DNA of 64,000 nt from Gammaproteobacteria bacterium (GTDB lineage: Bacteria > Pseudomonadota > Gammaproteobacteria > Xanthomonadales > Marinicellaceae). The notes under the pieces were generated by a model, which did not search any database, was not told the origin of the DNA, and saw only the letters and a program-made list of their open reading frames with translations. A program made the translations under genes and the position numbers. The stretch spans positions 6,150 to 70,149 of the forward strand of contig JAWLAO010000009.1 in NCBI GenBank assembly GCA_041395445.1. The letters run 5' to 3'. Positions 2,674 through 53,681 of the stretch are shown here, piece after piece (within the stretch, counting starts at the first letter, position 1; every line of letters begins with the position of its first letter).

Positions 2674-3228
2674 TTAGTCATTTATTTTTTGTTCTGCACT
2701 ATCTTTGACAGGTCTCTTTTTCAGCTTTCTTTGTAATGTTCGACGATGCATATTCAACTGCTCAGCTGCTTTTGAGATGTTTCCGTCATTTTCCGATAAG
2801 ACTTTTTGCAAATGTTCCCACTCCAATCGTTTCACCGGTAATGGTTTTTCCGGAATTGGAATATCAGTATCCGCTTCTTCAATATTTAAAGCTGCCAAAA
2901 TACTGTCAACGTCGGTCGGCTTGGTTAAATAGTGTTTCACACCCAACTTAATGGATTCCACGGCGGTTGCTATGCTGGCATAGCCGGTTAATATCACAAT
3001 TGAAACTTCCGGAAATTCAGCCAATAAGAACTCGCAAACTTTGAGTCCCGAATCCTCACCAATCCGCAAGTCCACAACTGCTTTATCAGGATAAAACTTC
3101 TTGGTTATTTGTTCGGTTTGTGAAAAATTATTTGCCGTTTCAACAATAAATCCTCTGTTTCGCAAAGCCCCTGCCAGAACTTCACAAAATATCTCATCAT
3201 CGTCAATAACTAGGATTCTTTCTTTCAT
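2674..3228 (-). CDS. regA: Response regulator of the RegA/PrrA/ActR/RoxR family (receiver plus Fis-type HTH)
   Basis: Receiver domain (ILVIDDD ... AVVDLRIGEDSG ... LTKP). The C-terminal HTH is NISKAAEQLNMHRRTLQRKLKK, typical of RegA-type regulators. It overlaps regB by 4 nt. Confidence 0.85.
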   Translation of the reverse strand: MKERILVIDDDEIFCEVLAGALRNRGFIVETANNFSQTEQITKKFYPDKAVVDLRIGEDSGLKVCEFLLAEFPEVSIVILTGYASIATAVESIKLGVKHYLTKPTDVDSILAALNIEEADTDIPIPEKPLPVKRLEWEHLQKVLSENDGNISKAAEQLNMHRRTLQRKLKKRPVKDSAEQKIND

Positions 3229-4442
3229 GTTTGCAATATCGGCAATGAAATAACAATTTGAGTACCGGATGAATCCACATCTTTTACATTAATACTTCCG
3301 GAAAATCTTTGAATGGTTGCGTGAGCCAAAAACAGCCCCAAGCCCATGCCAAACTCTTTATCCGAATCTATCGGCTTGCCAAATTCTTCATCGAGACCTT
3401 TTCCATTATCTGTAATTATAAAATTTAACTCATCGGATGAAATCTCACTCTTAAGAACAACTTTTGTGGACTCTGCCTGAAAGGAATTATTGATAATATT
3501 TACCAAAGCCTGAACCAAAGTTTTATCTGAAATCATCTGTTGTTGATTGGTGAACTCACAAACTTTCGTTTCCAGTTGAACTGATTCTGGTGGATGAATA
3601 GAGTTCAGAACTTTTTCAATGAACTTCCCAACAGTCAACTTCTTGCCTTTAATAGCTTGTGTCGTTCCTGTTGAGGCTGTAATTTGTGTCAGAGAATCTT
3701 TACATCTGTAAACTTGAGATTCCACAATTTGTAATTGTTTATGAAAATCAACAAGTTGCGGATTCTTCAACATCTCTTTAATGATGATGTTTATGGTTGC
3801 CAGAGGTGTTCCCAACTCATGTGCGGAACCAGTTGCTAAAGTCGCCAAAGCCAGTATTTTATCATTTTTCGCCTGATTGAGACTCGCCTGCATCAGCTGG
3901 GAATCTTTTCTGCGAATATTATTTACTAGACCAATAATCACCCAAGATAACAACAAAGCAATGACAATAAAGCCAAGCCACATACCAATCAAATGCTGGC
4001 TAAAACTGGTTTGGTGATGGTTGTGATGCATACTTGCTTCCATACTTACAGGCTGAAAGAATTTAATCAGTAAAGTGTAGGATATAACAGCAGAAAGTGT
4101 CAGCAACCATGTGTGTTTTGAGCGTAACGTGGTAGCTGAAAATATGATTGGAATGAGCAAAAACCAAGTAAAAGGATTGCTCGAACCGCCGGTTAAATAA
4201 AAGAACAAGGACAGCTCAACAATATCAATCAAAAGCTGAAAAAAGAATATCCAGTCATTACTGTTTTTTCTTGTCAGCCAGAACAGTATATTTATCAAAA
4301 AATACATGCCGCTAAGAGTCAAAACTGAACTCGGATAAATGATGTTCCAGATGTTTCTGGTAGTAAACCAAACGACAATCTGACCGACTATCAGAAAATT
4401 TCTAAGCCAAAATGCAGTAACATGACGTGAAAAATGATTCAT
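3225..4442 (-). CDS. regB: Redox-sensing histidine kinase of the RegB/PrrB/ActS/RoxS family
   Basis: Multi-TM N-terminus containing GGSSNPF, which matches the GGxxNPF quinone-site heptapeptide of RegB. H-box SAHELGTPLA. YRCKDSL resembles the RegB redox-Cys box. C-terminal ATPase domain with the G-box GMGLGLFL. Confidence 0.85.
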   Translation of the reverse strand: MNHFSRHVTAFWLRNFLIVGQIVVWFTTRNIWNIIYPSSVLTLSGMYFLINILFWLTRKNSNDWIFFFQLLIDIVELSLFFYLTGGSSNPFTWFLLIPIIFSATTLRSKHTWLLTLSAVISYTLLIKFFQPVSMEASMHHNHHQTSFSQHLIGMWLGFIVIALLLSWVIIGLVNNIRRKDSQLMQASLNQAKNDKILALATLATGSAHELGTPLATINIIIKEMLKNPQLVDFHKQLQIVESQVYRCKDSLTQITASTGTTQAIKGKKLTVGKFIEKVLNSIHPPESVQLETKVCEFTNQQQMISDKTLVQALVNIINNSFQAESTKVVLKSEISSDELNFIITDNGKGLDEEFGKPIDSDKEFGMGLGLFLAHATIQRFSGSINVKDVDSSGTQIVISLPILQT

Positions 4443-4492
4443 TTGGGAATTTTAAACCACTTTGAGTATTTTTGTTACCTCAACGTCTTTGG

Positions 4493-4509
4493 TGCGACAA
4501 TTTGTCGCA
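4493..4509. promoter_or_regulatory. Perfect 17-bp palindrome, candidate RegA/RegR-type operator in the regB/TonB-receptor divergent region
   Basis: TGCGACAA-T-TTGTCGCA. The inner 15-mer GCGACAATTTGTCGC matches 14/15 positions of the RegR box GNGRCRTTNNGNCGC as I recall it. It lies 51 nt from the regB ATG and 63 nt from the receptor ATG. Confidence 0.45.
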
Positions 4510-4571
4510 TTTACCAATCCTGCCTGAACAAGTATCATGTCGCCCGAATTCGAATAAAAAATACTGAGAAC

Positions 4572-6638
4572 ATGAATAAAACCATATTGTCGTTACTTCT
4601 AACTTCATCATCACTTGCTTTCACACAAACCTTAACTGACAAAGAAGAGTTAGATAATATCGAAGTTATCGGACATGAAAACAACCAACAGAATATTGTC
4701 AAATTACTTCCGGAAAATGCTCAAAGCATCATCGACACGCCTGAAGTTCTGAAAAAAATTCCCGGAGCGAATGTCAATAGAAATGGTCCTCTATCCGGCA
4801 TCGCCCAATATCGCGGTTTATTCGGTAACCGCGTCAATGTTCAAATTGATAACATCACCATGCAAGAATCTTGCTCAAACTCAATGGATACTGCAATGAG
4901 CCATATTCCCGCTTCGATGGTTGATGCGGTGGTTTTAAAACGTGGAATTTCTCCGGTTAGTTCCGCTATCGAATCCATCGGAGGAAGTATTAGCGTTATC
5001 GCCAAAGAAAATATCAATCAGTCAGAAGCATTTCAATTGCATGGTGATGTCAGTTCAGGGTTTTCAACGGTTAACTCTGGCAAAAAAACATCAGTCCTTT
5101 TATCAGGCACATCTGAATTCCATAATATCTATCTCGGTTTTGATAGTGAAAGCGGTGACAGTTTTAAATTTCCGAACGGTAAAAATTACAGTACAGAATA
5201 TAACCGCGATTTCTATATGTTTGGCTACAACTTCAAATCTGATAATCAGGAACTCAAACTAAAACTCAACTATAACGATACCGGCAATACAGGAACGCCT
5301 TCATTACCAATGGACATTGTTTATGCTGAAGGTGGCGTAATTAGTTTGGAACATGCGTTAAGAGTTAATGATAGTTTATCTCTGAATTCGCAGTTCTCTC
5401 ATCAAAATACCGACCATTTGATGAACAATTATTTGTTTCGCTCCACTACAGATAAAAAAGACTCACTCACTCAAGTGAACAACAATAGCTACTCACTAAC
5501 AGCAAATTCCAATCAAGCTTTTGGGAATTTGACATTTGGACTTGAGGGAGATTTCACAGCTCATCAAGCTACAATTACAAATCCTGATAATCCTATGTTT
5601 AGTATTACCAATTTTGATACACGGAAATACAGGCACAGCGCATTTGCTGAACTTGAAAAGAAACTATCCGAAAAAATTCAAATGACAACCGGCTTGAGAT
5701 ACACTTTTGTGGATATGAGTGCTGCTGATGTGTATTCTTCCGTTTCCATGATGCAAAACTCTATGGGCAATTTGCATAGAGCCTTACAAGACAGATTCAA
5801 TAATTTAGATAGAAATATCAACGATAACAATCTGGATTTAGCCATCACTTTTGAGCAAAAGATTAATGATGACCTCTCTTTAGAATATGGTTTCGCGCGA
5901 AAAACTCGTTCTCCAAGTTATCAGGAACGCTATTTGTGGTTGCCTTTAGAAGCCACAGCAGGAATGGCAGATGGTTTGCAATATTTCGGAAATTTAAACC
6001 TCAAACCCGAGAAAGCCAACCAACTTGAGCTGGGTTTAAACTTCAGCAATGACAAACTGAGTTTCTCGCCACATGTTTTTTATCATGATATCAGCGACTA
6101 CATTCAAGGAACACCGACAACCAGCTCACCGACTCCACCAAATACTTTGACATTCAACAATGTGAATGCGGAACTTTACGGTGCAGATATGGAGTTCAGT
6201 TACAAATTCAACTCCAGTCTCACTTTGAATAACGTCACATCCTATGTTCGCGGAAAACGCAAAGATATTGACGATAACCTTTATCGAATTGCACCTTTGA
6301 ACACCCGAATTGAGCTGGTTTATGCCAATTCCAACTGGAGTCTATCTTCTGAGATTGTCGCTTATCAGTCTCAGGAAAATATTTCATCAACTAATAAGGA
6401 AAAAACAACTCCCGGTTATGGTTTGCTGAATTTAGCATCGAATATTAAACTCACTGATTCCGCAAATATCGCTTTTGGCATGAATAATGTTTTTAATAAA
6501 CAATATTACAACCACCTGAATGGTTATAACCGCAACAATCTGAATACAGATGTCGGTTTTGATGCTTCAAATTTACAAGCCTACAGATTACCGGGAGAAG
6601 GCAGAAATATTTATTTCAATCTCTATCTGCATTGGTAA
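4572..6638 (+). CDS. TonB-dependent receptor, OprC/NosA-like (copper type)
   Basis: Signal peptide MNKTILSLLLTSSSLAFT from the internal ATG at 4572. The ORF-track start 4434 would overlap the regB start. Plug motifs GIAQYRGLFGNRVNV; beta-barrel ending YLHW. CSNSM (Cys101, Met105) and HLM (His282, Met284) are present. Confidence 0.85.
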   Translation: MNKTILSLLLTSSSLAFTQTLTDKEELDNIEVIGHENNQQNIVKLLPENAQSIIDTPEVLKKIPGANVNRNGPLSGIAQYRGLFGNRVNVQIDNITMQESCSNSMDTAMSHIPASMVDAVVLKRGISPVSSAIESIGGSISVIAKENINQSEAFQLHGDVSSGFSTVNSGKKTSVLLSGTSEFHNIYLGFDSESGDSFKFPNGKNYSTEYNRDFYMFGYNFKSDNQELKLKLNYNDTGNTGTPSLPMDIVYAEGGVISLEHALRVNDSLSLNSQFSHQNTDHLMNNYLFRSTTDKKDSLTQVNNNSYSLTANSNQAFGNLTFGLEGDFTAHQATITNPDNPMFSITNFDTRKYRHSAFAELEKKLSEKIQMTTGLRYTFVDMSAADVYSSVSMMQNSMGNLHRALQDRFNNLDRNINDNNLDLAITFEQKINDDLSLEYGFARKTRSPSYQERYLWLPLEATAGMADGLQYFGNLNLKPEKANQLELGLNFSNDKLSFSPHVFYHDISDYIQGTPTTSSPTPPNTLTFNNVNAELYGADMEFSYKFNSSLTLNNVTSYVRGKRKDIDDNLYRIAPLNTRIELVYANSNWSLSSEIVAYQSQENISSTNKEKTTPGYGLLNLASNIKLTDSANIAFGMNNVFNKQYYNHLNGYNRNNLNTDVGFDASNLQAYRLPGEGRNIYFNLYLHW

Positions 6639-6673: not shown

Positions 6674-6703
6674 GAGAGAGCTTCGCGGAAGCTCTCTTTT
6701 TTT
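6674..6703 (+). terminator. Rho-independent terminator of the TonB receptor gene
   Basis: GAGAGAGCTTC-GCG-GAAGCTCTCT followed by TTTTTT. Confidence 0.85.
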
Positions 6704-6708
6704 AATGC

Positions 6709-8550
6709 TTATTCAAACCCATCTTCAAAAATAATATCACTGGCATAAGTTTCATCGGCTCCGACATCATAAGGATCACCACTAATTGTTGGGTCATCCC
6801 AGCCACGATTCTCAAAGTCCATATCTTTACCAAACAATAAATCAGATGCATCACACAAGTCTCTAACAGGAGAAGTTGCTGCAATATGATAATCTCTACT
6901 CGCCGGATTAACAAACTGAGGATCAAATGTTCCTGATGGGTTTAATGGAGGTGTAACAAAAGATGCTATCTCGTGTGCAATTAAACAACGAACATCGGTA
7001 CTTCCTTGAAAGGTTGAATTTATGACAGTTCCCGAACTGCTATCATGAACAATTGAGTTTTGCATTTTCAACTGCGAACCATTTGCACTATGTATCTGAA
7101 ACACAGCTATTTCTGCGTTGTTATCGGCAAATGTGCTTTCATAAACCTTTATGACAGCTCCTAATATAGCGCTAATGACATAGTTATCCAGATAACCTCC
7201 ATTTCCATTATTACCATTGTGGTTAAATACGCTATTATCAATTTGTACACCTGCAACATGTCCCGGTGTAACACCATCCGGAGTCCTCGCAGAAATCGCC
7301 GTTCCCGTCGCGGCTCTGTTATCTTCAAAAAAAGCATTGCTGATTTGCACATTGACACTAGATGCCACATTGGAGCTTTCTGTATAAATCGCTCCTCCGC
7401 TTCCTCCTTGTGTGCGATTTGCAGAAAAGAAATTACATCTTTCCTCGTTCCAGCATTCCTTGTTCGATCTCCTAACGAACAAATAGGATTTATCGAATAA
7501 AGCTATTGCTCCTCCCTGTACATTAGCCGTATTATTATAAATCCATCCATCCAGGATTTCCATATAAGTGTCTGTTCCTCCCAGATAGACAGCTCCTCCA
7601 ACATTAGCAGTATTCTGTGTTAGACTGACGGGGAGAGAATCAGGATCACCATTACATGTTGCTCCTATACATTGGTTTCCATTTAAAGAAATATACGAAC
7701 CACCTGTCGCATAGATTCCGCCGCCATTATTATCAGCTGTGTTTGAATCGATTCCCCAAACCGCCGGGATGGAAGATGATCCGGAATAGAAATTAATTAC
7801 ACAGCCATTACTATAAATGCCTCCTCCATTTCCACCGAGTGCACCGGATGCAATAGCATGATTGAATCTGACAGAAGAGTAATTGGAAATATTCATGTTC
7901 AAAGAAGTTCCTGCTCCGGATGTCACACAATATATTCCACCTCCTGAAAACCCTGCTAAAGCGTCATTGCTATAAAAACTTGAGTTTTCAATATCTACTT
8001 GTGTGTGAAATGAAGACGATTGATTGATGATAGCCAACCCTCCGCCACCGACAGCTGATGAGTTATTCTGAATTGAGACATTCTTAATTGTTAGTGAGCC
8101 ATTAACATGACTCGCATACAAGCCGCCACCGGGTTCTAAATCAGAATATCCATTCTCAATGACAAGATTTTCGAATACAAAATCTCTTGGAGATGAAATC
8201 GATCCGTTTATCCATATTACCGGATTATCACTGGACACCAACCCCTGAATTGTTGCTCTCAAATGATTATCACTGATATTGGCATTGGCATTGGCACAAC
8301 TTGTAAAGCCTCCGCGCATAGAGATTCCAGAAAAAAGAACCAGATTTTCATCATATGTGTTGCTAACAATCCTGACTTCTGTAGCTCCTCCAAGATTATT
8401 CAATGCAGTTGTTATATTTGAAAAATCACAACCACTTGCTGTTGAACCTACAGTTACAAAACCAGCTCCATTAACAACTTCAGTTTCTGCGTAAGCTAAA
8501 TTTCCTAATAATAAAATAATCAAATATATTTTTTTCACACTCCACTCCAA
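6709..8550 (-). CDS. Secreted parallel beta-helix protein with Pmp-like GGAI/FxxN repeats
   Basis: Signal peptide KKIYLIILLLGNLAYA. Repeated GGGLY/GGGIY/GGAVY/GGAIA/GGAIY tetrapeptides alternate with FYSND, FEDNRA, FADNNA and IYNNTA. C-terminal YDVGADE, then the protein ends IIFEDGFE. No beta-barrel or TM anchor is visible. Confidence 0.8.
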   Translation of the reverse strand: MEWSVKKIYLIILLLGNLAYAETEVVNGAGFVTVGSTASGCDFSNITTALNNLGGATEVRIVSNTYDENLVLFSGISMRGGFTSCANANANISDNHLRATIQGLVSSDNPVIWINGSISSPRDFVFENLVIENGYSDLEPGGGLYASHVNGSLTIKNVSIQNNSSAVGGGGLAIINQSSSFHTQVDIENSSFYSNDALAGFSGGGIYCVTSGAGTSLNMNISNYSSVRFNHAIASGALGGNGGGIYSNGCVINFYSGSSSIPAVWGIDSNTADNNGGGIYATGGSYISLNGNQCIGATCNGDPDSLPVSLTQNTANVGGAVYLGGTDTYMEILDGWIYNNTANVQGGAIALFDKSYLFVRRSNKECWNEERCNFFSANRTQGGSGGAIYTESSNVASSVNVQISNAFFEDNRAATGTAISARTPDGVTPGHVAGVQIDNSVFNHNGNNGNGGYLDNYVISAILGAVIKVYESTFADNNAEIAVFQIHSANGSQLKMQNSIVHDSSSGTVINSTFQGSTDVRCLIAHEIASFVTPPLNPSGTFDPQFVNPASRDYHIAATSPVRDLCDASDLLFGKDMDFENRGWDDPTISGDPYDVGADETYASDIIFEDGFE

Positions 8551-37580: not shown

Positions 37581-38465
37581 ATGAATAAAACAACAAAAAG
37601 TTGTAAAAGAGGGTATTTAAGTCTCTTTTTTACAGTTCTGGGCACATTTATTTCCGGCTTTGCCTACGCTGAATATGGTGTAAATATGACACAAGGTGTG
37701 ACCGAATTCAGTCAAACAGCTTATGATTTACACATGATTGTTTTCTGGATTTGTGTGGTCATAGCCGTTCTGGTTTTTGGAACAATGATTTATTCCATGT
37801 TTGCACATAGAAAATCAAAAGGTGTCGAAGCGGCACAGTTTTCACACAGCACCAAAGCAGAAGTAATCTGGACGATTATTCCTATTCTGATTTTGGTTTC
37901 TATGGCAGTTCCTGCGACTAAAGCACTAATGAGAATGGAAGCTCCAAAAGATGAAAATGGTGAACACCTCAATATGGAAATGACGGTAAAAGTTACAGGT
38001 TATCAATGGAAATGGAAATATGAGTATCTGGGAGAAAATGTTTCTTTTCTAAGCACTTTGAAAAGAGATAGCGACATGGCTCGTCAGATTGGTGATTTCC
38101 CAAATAAAAAACGACCGGGTGAAATTGAAAATTATCTGTTAGACGTCGATCAACCATTGGTTATACCGGTGGATACCAATATTAGATTCTTACTCACTTC
38201 CAATGACGTGATTCACTCTTGGTGGGTTCCACAGTTTGGCTGGAAAAGAGATGCAATTCCCGGTTATGTGAACGAAGCATGGACAAATGTTAAGGAAGTT
38301 GGTACTTATCGTGGTCAATGTGCTGAATTATGCGGTAAAGACCATGGATTTATGCCAATTGTTGTTGAAGTAAAATCTAAAGAAGACTTCGCTAAATGGC
38401 TGAGTGAGCAGAAAGGTGAAAACCTTGCAGGCGATGTATCTGTTCAAACACTAGCTAAAAACTGA
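37581..38465 (+). CDS. coxB: Cytochrome c oxidase subunit II (aa3 type, no fused cytochrome c)
   Basis: CuA site HSWWVP ... CAELCGKDHGFM, with two N-terminal TM helices. Confidence 0.95.
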   Translation: MNKTTKSCKRGYLSLFFTVLGTFISGFAYAEYGVNMTQGVTEFSQTAYDLHMIVFWICVVIAVLVFGTMIYSMFAHRKSKGVEAAQFSHSTKAEVIWTIIPILILVSMAVPATKALMRMEAPKDENGEHLNMEMTVKVTGYQWKWKYEYLGENVSFLSTLKRDSDMARQIGDFPNKKRPGEIENYLLDVDQPLVIPVDTNIRFLLTSNDVIHSWWVPQFGWKRDAIPGYVNEAWTNVKEVGTYRGQCAELCGKDHGFMPIVVEVKSKEDFAKWLSEQKGENLAGDVSVQTLAKN

Positions 38466-38486
38466 TAATATTTGAGGGTAGAGAAA

Positions 38487-40106
38487 ATGAGTCATACTAC
38501 AACTTTAGATCACGAACACGACCATGACCACAAACCCAAAGGTTTTGTAAACAGATGGTTAATGACAACAAACCATAAAGATATCGGTACTCTTTATCTG
38601 GTTTTCGCACTGATTATGTTCATTGCCGGCGGTGCGTTGGCGATGATTATTCGTCTTGAATTGTTCCAACCCGGATTGCAATTTGTTGAGCCTGATTTCT
38701 TCAACCAGCTAACAACCATGCATGCATTGATAATGGTATTTGGTGCTGTAATGCCTGCTTTCGTTGGTTTTGCTAACTGGATGATTCCAATGATGATTGG
38801 CGCTCCTGACATGGCATTGCCAAGAATGAATAACTGGTCATTCTGGATTTTACCTTTTGCTTTTATTATGCTGGGTTCTACCTTCTTTATGGATGGCGGT
38901 GCTCCTGCTGCAGGTTGGACACTATATCCTCCTCTGGTTTTACAAGGTGGTAAAAATCTGGCATTTGCGGTATTTGCAATCCACATGATGGGTATTTCTT
39001 CAATCATGGGTGCAATTAACGTTATTGCTACAATCATGAACATGCGAGCTCCGAATATGGGCTACTTGAAAATGCCATTGTTTGTATGGACATGGTTGAT
39101 CACTGCTTTCTTGTTGATTGCTGTTATGCCTGTATTTGCGGGCGCAGTAACCATGCTGTTAACTGATCACTATTTCGGTACAACATTCTTTAACGCTGCC
39201 GGTGGTGGTGATCCGGTCTTATTCCAGCATATTTTCTGGTTCTTCGGACATCCTGAAGTTTATATTATGATTCTTCCATCATTTGGAATCATCTCTGAAA
39301 TTATTCCTACTTTTGCTCGTAAGCCATTGTTTGGTTATGTTTCTATGGTTTATGCATCAGCAGCAATTGCATTCTTGTCATTCATCGTTTGGGCTCACCA
39401 CATGTTTAGTGTTGGTATGCCATTTGGTGCAGAATTGTACTTCATGTATGCAACTATGCTGATTTCGATTCCGACAGGAGTCAAAGTATTCAACTGGGTT
39501 GCAACCATGTGGAAAGGGGCGATGACATTTGAAACACCAATGTTGTTTGCGATAGCATTTGTAATTCTATTCACCATTGGTGGTTTCTCTGGATTGATGA
39601 TGTCAATTGCTCCGGCTGATTTCCAGTATCATGATACCTACTTCATTGTTGCACACTTCCACTACGTTCTGGTAACAGGTGCAGTATTTGCAATTATCGG
39701 CGGAGTCTATTACTGGATTCCAAAATGGACTGGTAACATGTACTCAGAAAGACTAGGGAAAATCCATTTCTGGTGGTCAACAATTTCTGTCAATGTTCTG
39801 TTCTTCCCGCAACATTTCTTAGGTTTAGCTGGAATGCCAAGACGTATTCCTGATTATTCAACTCAATTTACTGAGTTTAACATGTGGTCAAGTATTGGTG
39901 GATTCGCTTTTGGTTTGGCACAAGTCTTCTTCTGCATTATTGTTTGGAGAACTGTCAAAGGTAAAGGCACCACAAAAGCAACAGACAGAGTTTGGGATAG
40001 TGCAAAAGGTTTAGAATGGTTTGTACCATCTCCGGCTCCTCATCACACTTTCCAGGATGGAGCACCTGTTAAAGATGAACAATTAGCGCACGTTTCATCA
40101 CACTAA
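38487..40106 (+). CDS. coxA: Cytochrome c oxidase subunit I
   Basis: GHPEVYI and WAHHMF motifs. The ATG at 38487 follows GAGGG; the ORF-track start 38472 is a TTG. Confidence 0.95.
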   Translation: MSHTTTLDHEHDHDHKPKGFVNRWLMTTNHKDIGTLYLVFALIMFIAGGALAMIIRLELFQPGLQFVEPDFFNQLTTMHALIMVFGAVMPAFVGFANWMIPMMIGAPDMALPRMNNWSFWILPFAFIMLGSTFFMDGGAPAAGWTLYPPLVLQGGKNLAFAVFAIHMMGISSIMGAINVIATIMNMRAPNMGYLKMPLFVWTWLITAFLLIAVMPVFAGAVTMLLTDHYFGTTFFNAAGGGDPVLFQHIFWFFGHPEVYIMILPSFGIISEIIPTFARKPLFGYVSMVYASAAIAFLSFIVWAHHMFSVGMPFGAELYFMYATMLISIPTGVKVFNWVATMWKGAMTFETPMLFAIAFVILFTIGGFSGLMMSIAPADFQYHDTYFIVAHFHYVLVTGAVFAIIGGVYYWIPKWTGNMYSERLGKIHFWWSTISVNVLFFPQHFLGLAGMPRRIPDYSTQFTEFNMWSSIGGFAFGLAQVFFCIIVWRTVKGKGTTKATDRVWDSAKGLEWFVPSPAPHHTFQDGAPVKDEQLAHVSSH

Positions 40107-40113
40107 TACAGAT

Positions 40114-40227
40114 ATGTCCAATAACGATATCGAGCAAAGAAGAAAAGCAGCCCGACGCACAGCGTTAGGGTTGCTTGTGTTTGCGATAGCAATGTTTTCG
40201 GCTTTTTATATGCTGAACTTTAGATAA
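40114..40227 (+). CDS. 37-aa single-TM protein, candidate cytochrome oxidase small assembly protein (not in the ORF track)
   Basis: MSNNDIEQRRKAARRTALGLLVFAIAMFSAFYMLNFR*. It fills the coxA-cox11 gap: its start is 8 nt after the coxA stop and its stop is 2 nt before the cox11 ATG. It has a basic N-terminus followed by a TM helix. Confidence 0.55.
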   Translation: MSNNDIEQRRKAARRTALGLLVFAIAMFSAFYMLNFR

Positions 40228-40229
40228 TT

Positions 40230-40757
40230 ATGAATAAAACGGTTTTAAAAACAACAATCGTATCAGTCCTGATGTTCGGATTTGCATTTGCTTTAGTTCC
40301 GCTCTATGACACTTTCTGCGAGCTCACCGGCTTGAATGGCAAAACCGGAGATCCTGTGGCTGAAGATATTATCAAAAAACAGGTTGTTGATGAAAATCGT
40401 GAAATCACTGTTCAGTTTGATGCCAATGTCAACTCACAACTTAACTGGGAATTCCGACCCACTGAATTCAATATGAAAGTTGTGCCTGGTAAGTTGTATA
40501 AAACTGAATATTACGCAAAAAATTTATCAAAAAAGAGAGCCATTACCGGCAGAGCCACCTATAGCGTTGCTCCGGGTAAAGCCTCTTTATATTTTAACAA
40601 AACAGAATGTTTCTGTTTTACCGAACAAACTTTAGAACCACAGGAAGAAGTATTAATGCCTGTGACTTTCATTGTAGATTCGAATTTACGAGAAGACGTC
40701 GATATCATGACGTTGTCTTATACTTTTTATGAATTTGATTCAAAAAACAAAATTTAG
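40230..40757 (+). CDS. ctaG: Cytochrome c oxidase assembly protein Cox11/CtaG
   Basis: N-terminal TM anchor and the copper-binding CFCF motif (TECFCFTEQ). Confidence 0.9.
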   Translation: MNKTVLKTTIVSVLMFGFAFALVPLYDTFCELTGLNGKTGDPVAEDIIKKQVVDENREITVQFDANVNSQLNWEFRPTEFNMKVVPGKLYKTEYYAKNLSKKRAITGRATYSVAPGKASLYFNKTECFCFTEQTLEPQEEVLMPVTFIVDSNLREDVDIMTLSYTFYEFDSKNKI

Positions 40758-40771
40758 AAACGAGGGGTAAA

Positions 40772-41644
40772 ATGTCAAATACAAATACTGAACAATATTT
40801 TGTGCCACATAAAGCACGTTGGCCGATTGTCGGCTCAATTGGCATGACATTAACAGCAGTCGGTGCTGCTACTTTCATGAACAGCTCATCTTCACATACT
40901 CCAGTATTGATGTACCTTGGTTTTGCAGTCATTATTTTTATGATGTTTGGCTGGTTTGGTGAAGTTGTCAAAGAATCTGAAAGTCAAATGTATAACGAAC
41001 AAGTTGATACATCATTCAGAATGGGAATGGTGTGGTTTATCTTCTCAGAAGTGATGTTCTTTGCATGTTTCTTTGGCGCACTCTGGTATGTTAGAAATTT
41101 TGCAGTGCCTTGGCTTGGTGGCGAAGGAACCGGTTCTTGGACAAATAATGAAATTTGGTCCGGTTATGAAGGTGTTTGGCCAACAAACGGTCCTGCAAAT
41201 GTTGGTGGTGAATTTGAACTAATCGACCCTTACCACTTGCCTTTAATTAATACCATTTTACTGATGGCGAGTTCCATCACTTTAACAATCGCTCACCATG
41301 CCTTGATTAAAGGACTTCGTAAGAAAACAATCGGTTGGTTGATTGCAACGGTTATTCTTGGTGCGACATTCTTGTTCTATCAAGCTGAAGAGTATATTGA
41401 AGCCTATCAACATCTTGGTTTGACATTAGGTTCAGGAATTTATGGCTCAACATTCTTTATGCTCACCGGCTTCCACGGTATGCATGTAACATTAGGCGCA
41501 ATTATGTTGACTGTTATCACCATTCGTATGATAAAAGGTCATTTCAAGCCGGACAGCCATTTTGGTTTTGAAGCGGTGGCATGGTACTGGCACTTTGTTG
41601 ATGTTGTATGGATTGGCTTGTTTATATTTGTTTATATCATGTAA
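40772..41644 (+). CDS. coxC: Cytochrome c oxidase subunit III
   Basis: Seven-TM pattern with FHGMHV and AVAWYWHFVDVVW motifs. Confidence 0.95.
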   Translation: MSNTNTEQYFVPHKARWPIVGSIGMTLTAVGAATFMNSSSSHTPVLMYLGFAVIIFMMFGWFGEVVKESESQMYNEQVDTSFRMGMVWFIFSEVMFFACFFGALWYVRNFAVPWLGGEGTGSWTNNEIWSGYEGVWPTNGPANVGGEFELIDPYHLPLINTILLMASSITLTIAHHALIKGLRKKTIGWLIATVILGATFLFYQAEEYIEAYQHLGLTLGSGIYGSTFFMLTGFHGMHVTLGAIMLTVITIRMIKGHFKPDSHFGFEAVAWYWHFVDVVWIGLFIFVYIM

Positions 41645-51605: not shown

Positions 51606-53681
51606 ATGAAAAAAACAATTAACAAAGGTCTTTGGGCCTCCACTCTTTTTGCGTCAACACTTTGCGCAGCACAAATAATTGAAAACAACGAAACAAAAGA
51701 AAATGAACAGACTCAGGAAGAAGTTTCTAAAATGGATTCGGTCAAGGTATGGGGAACAACCGTTCAGTCATCCTCTGTCAATATCGACGAAAAGTATCTC
51801 ACTATGAGACAAGCCGATCACCTGAGTGACTTGTTGAGAAGCATACCCGGAGTTGATGTCGGAGGTTCACACTCACTCAATCAAAGAATAAATATCAGGG
51901 GTCTGGATGACAGGGATTTATTAATTACCATCGATGGCGCAGTGCAAAATACCTACATGTATCACCACATGGGAAATTTACAGATTCATGCAGACATTTT
52001 AAAGGCTGTAGAAATTGAGGTTGGAACAAACTCCGTAATCAATAGCGGATTAGGCGGATCGGTAAAGTTTAAAACTAAAGAGGCCAAAGACTTATTGGAG
52101 TATGGGCAAACAATCGGTGTCAGGACACAGGGTTCATTTGCCAGCAATGACTCTTCTGGAGGCTCTATTACAAGTTATGGACAACTCTCGAATAATGTCG
52201 ATTTTCTGGCTTATTATAATTATGTTGACAGAAGCAATTTCACAGTTGGTGGCGGGAAAATATTAGGGAGCGACGGAGTTGTCATTAATGAATCTGGAGT
52301 TGTAAAAGGTCAAGCTGGAAGAACAAATGATGGTTTATTCAAACTGGGAATAGATCTTAGTCCTCTTCAACGCCTTGAATTTGGTATTGAGGGATACAGT
52401 GATAAAGGGAATTACAGTTATCGTCCGGATATGGGTCTTGCAACAGATATTGCAATCGCAGATGGCTTGGGACTCCCTTTGGTTTATCCGACAGAATTTT
52501 TAAGAGACACCTATACAATCAATTATGATTTAAGCTGGGGATCTAATTCCAATCTGGTTGCATCCGCTTACATGAATAAAAGTGACTTATGGAGAGACCA
52601 GACCTCACTGGCAAATGTACTATCAGGAAACCCAAAAATTGTAGAAGGAAATGCATTAAACAAAGGATTTAATATACTAGGGAACTCAACACTATCGGGC
52701 ATAAACGAGAATGAATTGACTTATGGTATGGAGTTCTATGATTATGAAACCGAATATTCAAGAGACTACCAACTCACTTCCAGTGAGAATGCCAGCAATT
52801 TTGCAATCTATCTCCAGGATAAAATTGCTATTACTGACAAACTCTCTTTGACACCTGGAATACGCTATGATCGCTATAGCATTGACTCACAAATAGTCGA
52901 TAATGACTTTGATGAGTTCACTTATGGTTTGTCTCTAGACTATAAGATAAACGAGAATCTGGCATTCCAAGTCAGCTCTACAGAAATCTTTAAAGGCCCT
53001 GAGTTATCAGAAATTTTTATAGGTGCAGGTCTGAACGATATTGAAAACCAATTGATTAAAGCAGAAACGGGCTACAATAATCAAGTTGTACTTAATTATA
53101 ATCCTTCAGAAGCAATACACTTAGGTATGACTTATTACCACTCTAAAATTAATAACTATATCGATGAATCATTGGACACGAACATCGGTGATATTACTCT
53201 GAGGGGATATGAGTTTTTTATCAGCCATCAAAAGGGAAACTTGCTGGCATTGCTGAGTTATGCCAGCCAGGACAGTGAACTGAATGCTTTTGCAGATTTC
53301 ATGAATTTGGATAATGCACGTCTCGACCGTGCAATTGGGGACAGTCTCAATCTTAATATTGATTACTCATTCCCGGAAAAAAATCTTGACCTTTACTGGA
53401 ACACTCAGTTTATCGCCGACTTACCGGAAGAACTCGATACATCCGGTTCTGCAAGACAAAAAAATGCCTATACCATCCACAACCTTTCACTGCGGTGGAT
53501 TCCCCAGAAGATGATTCAGGGAATGGAATTAACTTTTGGAATTGACAATATTTTCGATAAAAGTTATGCCTCCCACGCATCAAGAACCGGAGATTCAATA
53601 CATCCCCGTTTTGGAGCACTTCATCTGACGGATTACGAACCAGGGAGAAATATTAAAACAACAGTTGCTTATCGTTTTTAA
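51606..53681 (+). CDS. TonB-dependent receptor (iron-regulated operon)
   Basis: Signal peptide, plug motifs (LLRSIPGVDV, INIRGLDDRD) and a barrel ending TTVAYRF. Confidence 0.9.
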   Translation: MKKTINKGLWASTLFASTLCAAQIIENNETKENEQTQEEVSKMDSVKVWGTTVQSSSVNIDEKYLTMRQADHLSDLLRSIPGVDVGGSHSLNQRINIRGLDDRDLLITIDGAVQNTYMYHHMGNLQIHADILKAVEIEVGTNSVINSGLGGSVKFKTKEAKDLLEYGQTIGVRTQGSFASNDSSGGSITSYGQLSNNVDFLAYYNYVDRSNFTVGGGKILGSDGVVINESGVVKGQAGRTNDGLFKLGIDLSPLQRLEFGIEGYSDKGNYSYRPDMGLATDIAIADGLGLPLVYPTEFLRDTYTINYDLSWGSNSNLVASAYMNKSDLWRDQTSLANVLSGNPKIVEGNALNKGFNILGNSTLSGINENELTYGMEFYDYETEYSRDYQLTSSENASNFAIYLQDKIAITDKLSLTPGIRYDRYSIDSQIVDNDFDEFTYGLSLDYKINENLAFQVSSTEIFKGPELSEIFIGAGLNDIENQLIKAETGYNNQVVLNYNPSEAIHLGMTYYHSKINNYIDESLDTNIGDITLRGYEFFISHQKGNLLALLSYASQDSELNAFADFMNLDNARLDRAIGDSLNLNIDYSFPEKNLDLYWNTQFIADLPEELDTSGSARQKNAYTIHNLSLRWIPQKMIQGMELTFGIDNIFDKSYASHASRTGDSIHPRFGALHLTDYEPGRNIKTTVAYRF

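Follow-up and report, generated by a model that had tools for sequence, protein, structure and literature searches.

The window analysed here is the whole 64,000-nucleotide (nt) stretch at positions 6,150 to 70,149 (forward strand) of contig JAWLAO010000009.1 from a Marinicellaceae genome, Gammaproteobacteria bacterium assembly GCA_041395445.1. The gene under study encodes a TonB-dependent outer-membrane receptor resembling OprC, a copper receptor of Pseudomonas aeruginosa, and lies divergent from regB and regA, the genes of a two-component system related to the redox regulators RegB/RegA. The 129 base pairs (bp) between regB and the receptor gene hold a perfect palindrome that is conserved in relatives of the locus at a fixed distance from the receptor -10 box. 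The features of the locus are as follows (coordinates are those of the window).

2674-3228, reverse strand: regA, response regulator with a receiver and a Fis-type helix-turn-helix domain, HTH_8 (NCBIfam and Pfam, Response_reg and HTH_8)
3225-4442, reverse strand: regB, membrane redox-sensor histidine kinase (NCBIfam)
4449-4478, reverse strand: predicted sigma-70 promoter of regBA, GTAACA-18-TAAAAT (consensus scan, 9 of 12 matches; prediction only)
4493-4509, no strand assigned: perfect 17-bp palindrome TGCGACAATTTGTCGCA, proposed RegA operator common to both divergent promoters (uniqueness and motif fit)
4510-4538, forward strand: predicted sigma-70 promoter of the receptor gene, TTTACC-17-TATCAT (consensus scan)
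4572-6638, forward strand: OprC-like TonB-dependent transporter P0001, 688 amino acids (Pfam Plug and TonB_dep_Rec_b-barrel; TIGR01778 top NCBIfam match, 178.8 bits)
4572-4628, forward strand: signal peptide, MNKTILSLLLTSSSLAFTQ (read from the sequence)
4650-4673, forward strand: probable TonB box LDNIEVIG, residues 27-34 (read from the sequence; paired by hhalign with the L..v.V.a segment of the OprC clade)
4872-4886, forward strand: plug-domain CxxxM, with Cys101, Asn103 and Met105 aligned to OprC Cys143, Asn145 and Met147
5310-5312, forward strand: Met247, aligned to Met286 of the OprC methionine track (phmmer and hhalign)
5415-5423, forward strand: barrel-wall HxM, with His282 and Met284 aligned to OprC His323 and Met325
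6674-6698, forward strand: intrinsic terminator-like hairpin 3' of the receptor gene, an 11-bp stem followed by a T run

Translation gave Cys101-Ser-Asn-Ser-Met105 and His282-Leu-Met284 at the positions read in the first-pass annotation, the cysteine and the histidine being 181 residues apart. Cys101 is the sole cysteine of the receptor. Pfam assigned residues 53-138 to the Plug domain, followed by the TonB-dependent barrel. The start at 4572 was favoured by the signal peptide and by the length of all homologues (∼688 amino acids). A longer open reading frame starting at 4434 was rejected: it would run over both regB and the operator, and the start of the homologues corresponds to 4572. The hairpin at 6674-6698 suggests that the receptor gene is monocistronic.

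The top NCBIfam model for the receptor was TIGR01778 (TonB-copper), with an E value of 2e-52, and the second-ranked families were of the haem/transferrin and ZnuD types. The hidden Markov model search proposed by the first-pass annotation named the copper family as best match, at a score far under the curated equivalog cut-off of 472.45 bits. The top matches in a phmmer search of PDB sequences were all OprC (6FOK, E 5e-25), and the alignment placed Cys101, Met105, His282 and Met284 on OprC Cys143, Met147, His323 and Met325 with no local gaps. These are the residues of the tetrahedral copper site of OprC, in which Cys143 and Met147 are provided by the plug and His323 and Met325 by the barrel wall (PMC8610252). 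The same register of the four ligand residues was obtained in a 58-sequence MAFFT alignment and in a profile-profile alignment of the family against the canonical OprC clade with hhalign (probability 100%, E 1.2e-84, 644 columns, 20% identity), so the copper-site assignment of the first-pass annotation was borne out by three alignment methods. In the hhalign alignment C101, N103, M105, D106, M247, D248, H282, M284 and N286 were all paired with identical residues of the OprC clade. The residue aligned with Met247, Met286, is a ligand of the silver site Ag2 in the methionine track of OprC (PMC8610252). Three other TonB-dependent receptors of the same genome, included in the 58-sequence alignment, carry neither CxxxM nor HxM, which argues for homology rather than chance.

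An AlphaFold2 model was generated from 113 homologues, with a mean predicted local distance difference test score (pLDDT) of 89.4 and low confidence at residues 1-39. CxxxM was placed in a plug loop, and His282 and Met284 at the end of the predicted strand 269-285. A Foldseek search of the PDB returned OprC chains as the top 28 matches, with E values down to 1.7e-39 and template modelling (TM) scores of 0.79-0.86; the first non-OprC protein was PhuR (7e-33). The TonB-dependent fold is thus found alike in the Pfam domains, in the model and in the comparison with OprC.

A phylogenetic tree was calculated in which only three receptors of the same genome served as outgroup. The family of the receptor (27 rows), which comes from marine Gammaproteobacteria, was monophyletic with support 100 and stood on a long branch; the 28 rows of TIGR01778 formed its sister clade, with support 99. 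By every sequence feature examined the receptor is therefore predicted to work like OprC (P. aeruginosa PA3790; PDB 6FOK, 6Z8Q and others), yet it is not an OprC/NosA equivalog. Of the NosA/OprC resemblance noted in the first-pass annotation, the best-match status of OprC in NCBIfam, PDB-sequence and Foldseek searches stood, and membership of the subfamily did not; the receptor belongs to a distant sister clade. Both proteins combine a TonB-dependent plug with a 22-strand barrel and carry the plug CxxxM(D) and barrel-wall HxM(x)N in the same columns, with OprC Asn145 and Met286 matched as well. They differ in clade, in overall sequence and in one methionine-rich loop, Met338-343 of OprC, which the receptor lacks; a separate methionine cluster (Met393/394/398) of the receptor lies in another loop. 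They also differ in promoter: OprC expression is reportedly repressed by excess external Cu(II) (PMC8610252), whereas the conserved promoter element of the receptor is the RegA-type operator.

The nearest homologues were found in Marinicellaceae-type metagenome-assembled genomes, Marinicella, Cycloclasticus, Methylophaga and methanotrophs. When 301 genomes of the class were scored with TIGR01778, the values ran continuously from 870 to ∼105 bits, and in the 30 best-scoring loci (350-870 bits) CxxxMD, the MD containing the equivalent of Met286, and HxM[DN]N were present in every sequence that covered the region. Within the family (174 non-redundant sequences) Met105, Met247, His282 and Met284 are 100% conserved, and Asn103 and Asp106 do not vary either. 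At position 101, 90 sequences have Cys and the other 84 have Gly, with no other residue, and the state of this position switched at least 8 times in a 78-locus tree. Some genomes hold one Cys and one Gly paralogue together (L034/L042; L055/L087). The C143A variant of OprC loses Cu(II) binding and still binds Ag(I) (PMC8610252), so that by analogy the Gly forms may be Cu(I)-only. The clade as a whole may not be uniformly copper-specific; the window receptor retains the full set of four ligands. Such a natural Cys/Gly series, present in some genomes as paralogues, bears on the role of the cysteine in the choice between Cu(II) and Cu(I), and with the ligands retained in a sister clade that is remote from OprC and unstudied, the CxxxM-HxM site reaches well past the curated family.

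Gene surroundings vary with the type of receptor. In Cycloclasticus loci (L039-L050 and L017) Gly-type receptors lie downstream of a CobW/COG0523 metallochaperone gene, with RegA-like palindromes 5' of both receptor and cobW (L017, 6925-6941 and 7921-7937; variant TGTGGCAAATTGTCGCA). From this context the Gly forms might be part of another metal economy. In Methylophaga and relatives (L051, L053, L054, L066, L067, L080-L082, L085, L086, L094) the gene divergent from that of the Gly-type receptor encodes a DsbD_2 membrane protein that contains an HCxxMCG motif and has a C-terminal tail rich in His and Met, and the DsbD_2 gene is adjoined by a gene for a receiver-less sigma-54 activator with HTH_8. 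The RegA palindrome is absent from the receptor upstream regions of these Methylophaga-type loci, where the family appears to be under different control. In the methanotroph loci L042, L055, L063, L069, L071, L074, L076 and L084 a Crp/Fnr-family regulator gene adjoins a Cys-type Methylococcaceae receptor, in most cases upstream and divergent, with no RegA palindrome. A DUF3450-ExbB-ExbD-TonB cluster lies downstream of the receptor in several methanotroph and Pseudomonadales loci.

The metal of the window receptor is probably copper, judging from the ligand set. The receptor might instead import another soft or borderline metal (zinc, nickel, cobalt or iron) or a metal-chelate complex, the OprC-like residues then serving another specificity; we consider this unlikely. 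Such a role would fit the score under the TIGR01778 cut-off and the haem/transferrin and ZnuD runner-up families. Like OprC, ZnuD of Neisseria meningitidis takes up a naked metal ion in a TonB-dependent manner, and its buried site is near that of OprC. It matches the receptor weakly in family and fold; its zinc site occupies nearly the same barrel position as the OprC copper site (PMC8610252). ZnuD differs in being zinc-specific, in its other ligands and in its score, the receptor reaching 71 bits against a cut-off of 950. The Cys/Met/His/Met set is typical of copper and not of zinc or iron, and with Asn103 and Met247 it matches OprC column for column. The CobW gene adjoining the Cycloclasticus Gly-type members is a further point for another metal, but no CobW homologue is present in this genome. 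Several homologues are named 'iron complex outermembrane receptor' by the Joint Genome Institute, a generic label. Expression of a TonB receptor, of a tonB operon and of feo depends on RegA in Methylomonas, and chromatin immunoprecipitation (ChIP) placed RegA at feo only (PMC13274454). The Methylomonas DH-1 receptor, AYM39_03125, is tied to iron; with 729 amino acids and a siderophore-type annotation it probably comes from a different family than the window receptor, and it is used here as a precedent only.

The CrtA (BfrG) family of Bordetella pertussis also comprises TonB-dependent copper transporters, dedicated to heme-copper oxidases, and has PepSY_TM genes downstream, as are found after the receptor in some close relatives of the locus. 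CrtA proteins form a separate sequence cluster and import chelated Cu(II). Their published description gives lengths of 707-911 amino acids and an invariant His as selectivity residue, with neither Cys nor Met conserved (PMC12914433). Judged by that family description, membership was rejected for the window receptor, which has 688 amino acids with conserved Cys/Met/His/Met, has no PDB-sequence match to CrtA and is nearest to OprC.

The receptor lies divergent from regB and regA, as described in the first-pass annotation. RegB and RegA gave ActS/PrrB/RegB (NF033792) and ActR/PrrA/RegA (NF033791) as their top NCBIfam matches, at 190.3 bits (cut-off 350) and 166.8 bits (cut-off 250). RegB contains GGSSNPF at residues 85-91, an H-box His208 and Cys247, which follows the histidine by 39 residues. 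We take the quinone-site heptapeptide of RegB to be GGxxNPF and the redox-box cysteine to lie ∼40 residues past the phospho-accepting histidine. Both a quinone-site heptapeptide and a redox-box cysteine are described for the RegB family (PMC5506826). The recognition helix of RegA is NMHRRTLQR (residues 159-167). The genome has one RegB/RegA-type pair, and its RegA-like regulator is unique.

With the RegB/RegA systems known as PrrBA, RegSR, RoxSR and ActSR the pair shares domain architecture, GGxxNPF, a cysteine after the H-box, a Fis-type helix-turn-helix and a GCGNC-type palindromic site, and it differs from them in that both proteins are under the NCBIfam equivalog cut-offs. In group 1 of these systems regBA and senC, which encodes a copper chaperone, are transcribed together, and a conserved Cys156 precedes the helix-turn-helix (PMC9147068). 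Here RegA has no Cys156, its only cysteines being at 15 and 65, and senC is not nearby, the only Sco/SenC gene of the genome being on another contig. As in group 1, regBA is linked to a copper-handling gene, with the difference that the linked gene here would encode an outer-membrane importer.

The palindrome TGCGACAATTTGTCGCA occurs once in the 2.88-Mb genome, against 0.045 copies expected. At this site GCGACAATTTGTCGC fits the Rhodobacter capsulatus RegA motif SSGNVRDNHYSNCSS with no mismatch and the Bradyrhizobium japonicum RegR box GNGRCRTTNNGNCGC with one; both motifs are quoted in PMC5506826, where published RegA-type motifs are seen to be degenerate and species-dependent. The palindrome abuts the predicted receptor promoter, whose -10 box begins 23 nt past its end, and is 14 nt from the -35 box of the predicted regB promoter.

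In the closest clade regBA is divergent from the receptor in all 8 loci, with receptors 59-63% and RegB proteins 53-58% identical. The palindrome is perfect in 7 of these 8 regBA-linked loci and has two mismatches in the remaining one (L021), while the flanks have diverged. Six further genomes of the same genus each hold a sole perfect palindrome, placed in every case between regB and the receptor. Across the family, 42 of 83 loci have a palindrome with up to 2 mismatches in 14 positions that precedes the receptor by 30-320 nt; the same criterion gave 15 sites in the remaining 1.38 Mb of those loci. The 42 loci belong to Marinicella, Cycloclasticus, Halieaceae and others and include both Cys and Gly types, and beyond the closest clade regBA is not adjacent to the receptor. 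A TAnnnT -10 box follows the palindrome by 22-23 nt in 35 of 38 distinct promoters of relatives. This spacing puts the site at about -51 to -35, a class II activator geometry. A conserved RegA-type operator at a fixed distance from the receptor -10 box turns the adjacency of regBA, to which the first-pass annotation had drawn attention, into a predicted regulatory link. No Rfam match was obtained upstream of the family receptors at six loci, and neither a riboswitch nor another known RNA was found there.

Five genomes in which regBA is unlinked from the receptor were examined, and each has exactly one RegA homologue (46-56% identical). In three of the five, namely an uncultured Marinicella, Marinicella marina and a Cycloclasticus, variants of the palindrome immediately precede regB; none was found upstream of regB in the other two. 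In M. marina the -10 spacing is 22 nt, as in the receptor promoters. Both M. marina and Marinicella gelatinilytica are cultivable and have the operator. A palindrome at both regB and the receptor is what would be seen if a factor regulated itself as well as its target, and in the genus of the window the two divergent promoters would share one site.

Further observations concern the surroundings of the palindrome. It lies directly upstream of other TonB-dependent receptor genes in two genomes, at L142 (Halieaceae, G304) and L169 (same genus as the window, G311). A protein with an HZS_alpha (hydrazine-synthase-alpha-like) domain is a neighbour in L169 and in Marinicella sediminis (L016). In L015 (∼7800-7990), L019 and L083, an insert of ∼150 bp separates the conserved -10 box from the receptor start codon. 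The insert holds a long inverted repeat (AAAAATTCGCAAATAGCCCGCTATTTGCGAATTTTT), possibly a leader hairpin or a small inserted element.

The regulator acting at the palindrome is likely to be RegA. The alternative, that the palindrome is the operator of some other regulator and that the adjacency of regBA is inherited gene order without function, is improbable in our view. RegA binding is deduced from motif and position, published RegA-type motifs are degenerate and vary by species (PMC5506826), and the 17-bp architecture of NtrC/Fis type is common to other HTH_8 regulators, some of which are encoded beside Gly-type receptors. The palindromes 5' of other TonB receptors and the two unlinked genomes without one upstream of regB also fit another regulator. 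Set against this, the palindrome precedes regB in three genomes in which regBA and the receptor are on different contigs, a signature of autoregulation; the site fits the RegA motif in full, and each genome examined has exactly one RegA homologue. In addition the arrangement of regBA, operator and receptor persists in the closest clade despite the divergence of RegB and of the flanking intergenic DNA.

Taken together, an OprC-like importer of ionic copper that is transcriptionally activated by RegA from a dedicated operator is the reading we favour, with somewhat less assurance for the combination than for either part. The receptor would be an outer-membrane, TonB-energised importer acting in the manner of OprC. 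A buried site to which the plug contributes Cys101 and Met105 and the barrel wall His282 and Met284 would capture the metal ion, with Met247 above this site as a remnant of the OprC methionine track. Remodelling of the plug by TonB would then release the ion to the periplasm, where it could supply the aa3 and cbb3 oxidases. RegA would act on the single palindrome as a class II activator of the receptor promoter. The same site, being also upstream of the regBA promoter, could serve as one operator for both autoregulation and receptor control. A feedback may be envisaged in which a reduced quinone pool, or poor electron flow through the copper oxidases, activates RegB, and phosphorylated RegA raises copper import. 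On this view copper uptake would be adjusted to how the respiratory chain is running.

More tentatively, RegBA might serve as an indirect sensor of copper sufficiency, under-metallated oxidases leading to reduced quinone, to active RegA and so to more importer. Such a loop would be conserved in several marine gammaproteobacterial families, and the recurrent Cys-to-Gly exchange would be a natural switch between Cu(I) plus Cu(II) and Cu(I)-only import, comparable to OprC C143A; this wider proposal is speculative.

Very few proteins are known to carry copper through the outer membrane of Gram-negative bacteria, and little is understood of the means by which its import is adjusted to need. An operator common to the receptor and regBA predicts that RegBA drives copper uptake directly, a link new to the literature searched, in which no connection of RegA, PrrA, RegR or RoxR to oprC or nosA was found. 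RegR is known to control nos and copCAB (PMC4064962).

Several results weigh against a RegA-activated copper importer. On the side of the receptor these are the ∼20% identity to OprC, the score far under the TIGR01778 cut-off, the absence of the Met338-343 loop in the phmmer and MAFFT alignments, and a pLDDT of only ∼75 at residues 101-110, where the plug ligands lie. About half of the family is of the Gly type, in some cases beside a CobW-type metallochaperone gene. On the side of regulation, genome-wide counts of the palindrome at one and two mismatches (0 and 42 observed, 1.9 and 38 expected) are those of chance, and an extended RegA regulon with the palindrome was not found in the genome. 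Upstream of the cox and cco genes only isolated GCGAC half-sites were seen (coxB, ccoN), with none upstream of sco, and they were not counted as evidence. The RegA-dependent receptor of Methylomonas was assigned to iron, and its promoter gave no RegA signal in ChIP (PMC13274454).

The genome gave 8 TonB_C matches and encodes a cbb3 oxidase (ccoN), one Sco protein and an aa3 oxidase, and has no NosL, NosY, PepSY_TM or CobW homologues. The aa3 operon that the first-pass annotation placed in the window is present (coxB-coxA-cox11-coxC, 37581-41644); it lies 31 kb from the receptor, and no link between the two was found. In one close lineage (L015, L019 and L083) nosD-F-Y-L and apbE lie just beyond regA, and FMN_bind, PepSY_TM and TonB genes lie downstream of the receptor; PepSY_TM partners are typical of CrtA copper receptors serving heme-copper oxidases (PMC12914433).

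This nos linkage raises the possibility that the receptor supplies copper to nitrous-oxide reductase, in the manner of NosA, and not to the respiratory oxidases. NosA of Pseudomonas stutzeri, which is orthologous to OprC and shares its copper motif, was once tied to NosZ maturation. Its distance in sequence from the receptor equals that of OprC, and the nos maturation genes are absent from the genome. The linkage is confined to a single near-identical lineage, and OprC homologues occur in many non-denitrifiers (PMC8610252), so that a NosA-type supply is a very improbable role for the receptor. For this genome, of which ∼4% is unassembled, such a role was rejected on the absence of nosL and nosY. 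Supply of the respiratory oxidases is the preferred reading.

Among the genes around the receptor regBA are the only conserved neighbours, related loci having nothing that corresponds to orf145, orf188 or orf613. A second TonB-dependent receptor, without the copper-site motifs, is encoded in the window at 51606-53681 on the forward strand (691 amino acids) and has a faint C-terminal match to TIGR01778. Two genes beyond regA, at 1478-2044 on the reverse strand, a secreted protein of 188 amino acids (P0124) is encoded; it has no Pfam or NCBIfam match and no counterpart in related loci, is extremely rich in Tyr, His, Asn, Arg and Gly, and ends in YGINFYFRF. Convergent with the receptor gene, at 6709-8550 on the reverse strand, is the gene for a 613-amino-acid protein with no family match and at least 7 paralogues (22-48% identity) on contigs C1, C4, C6 and C7.

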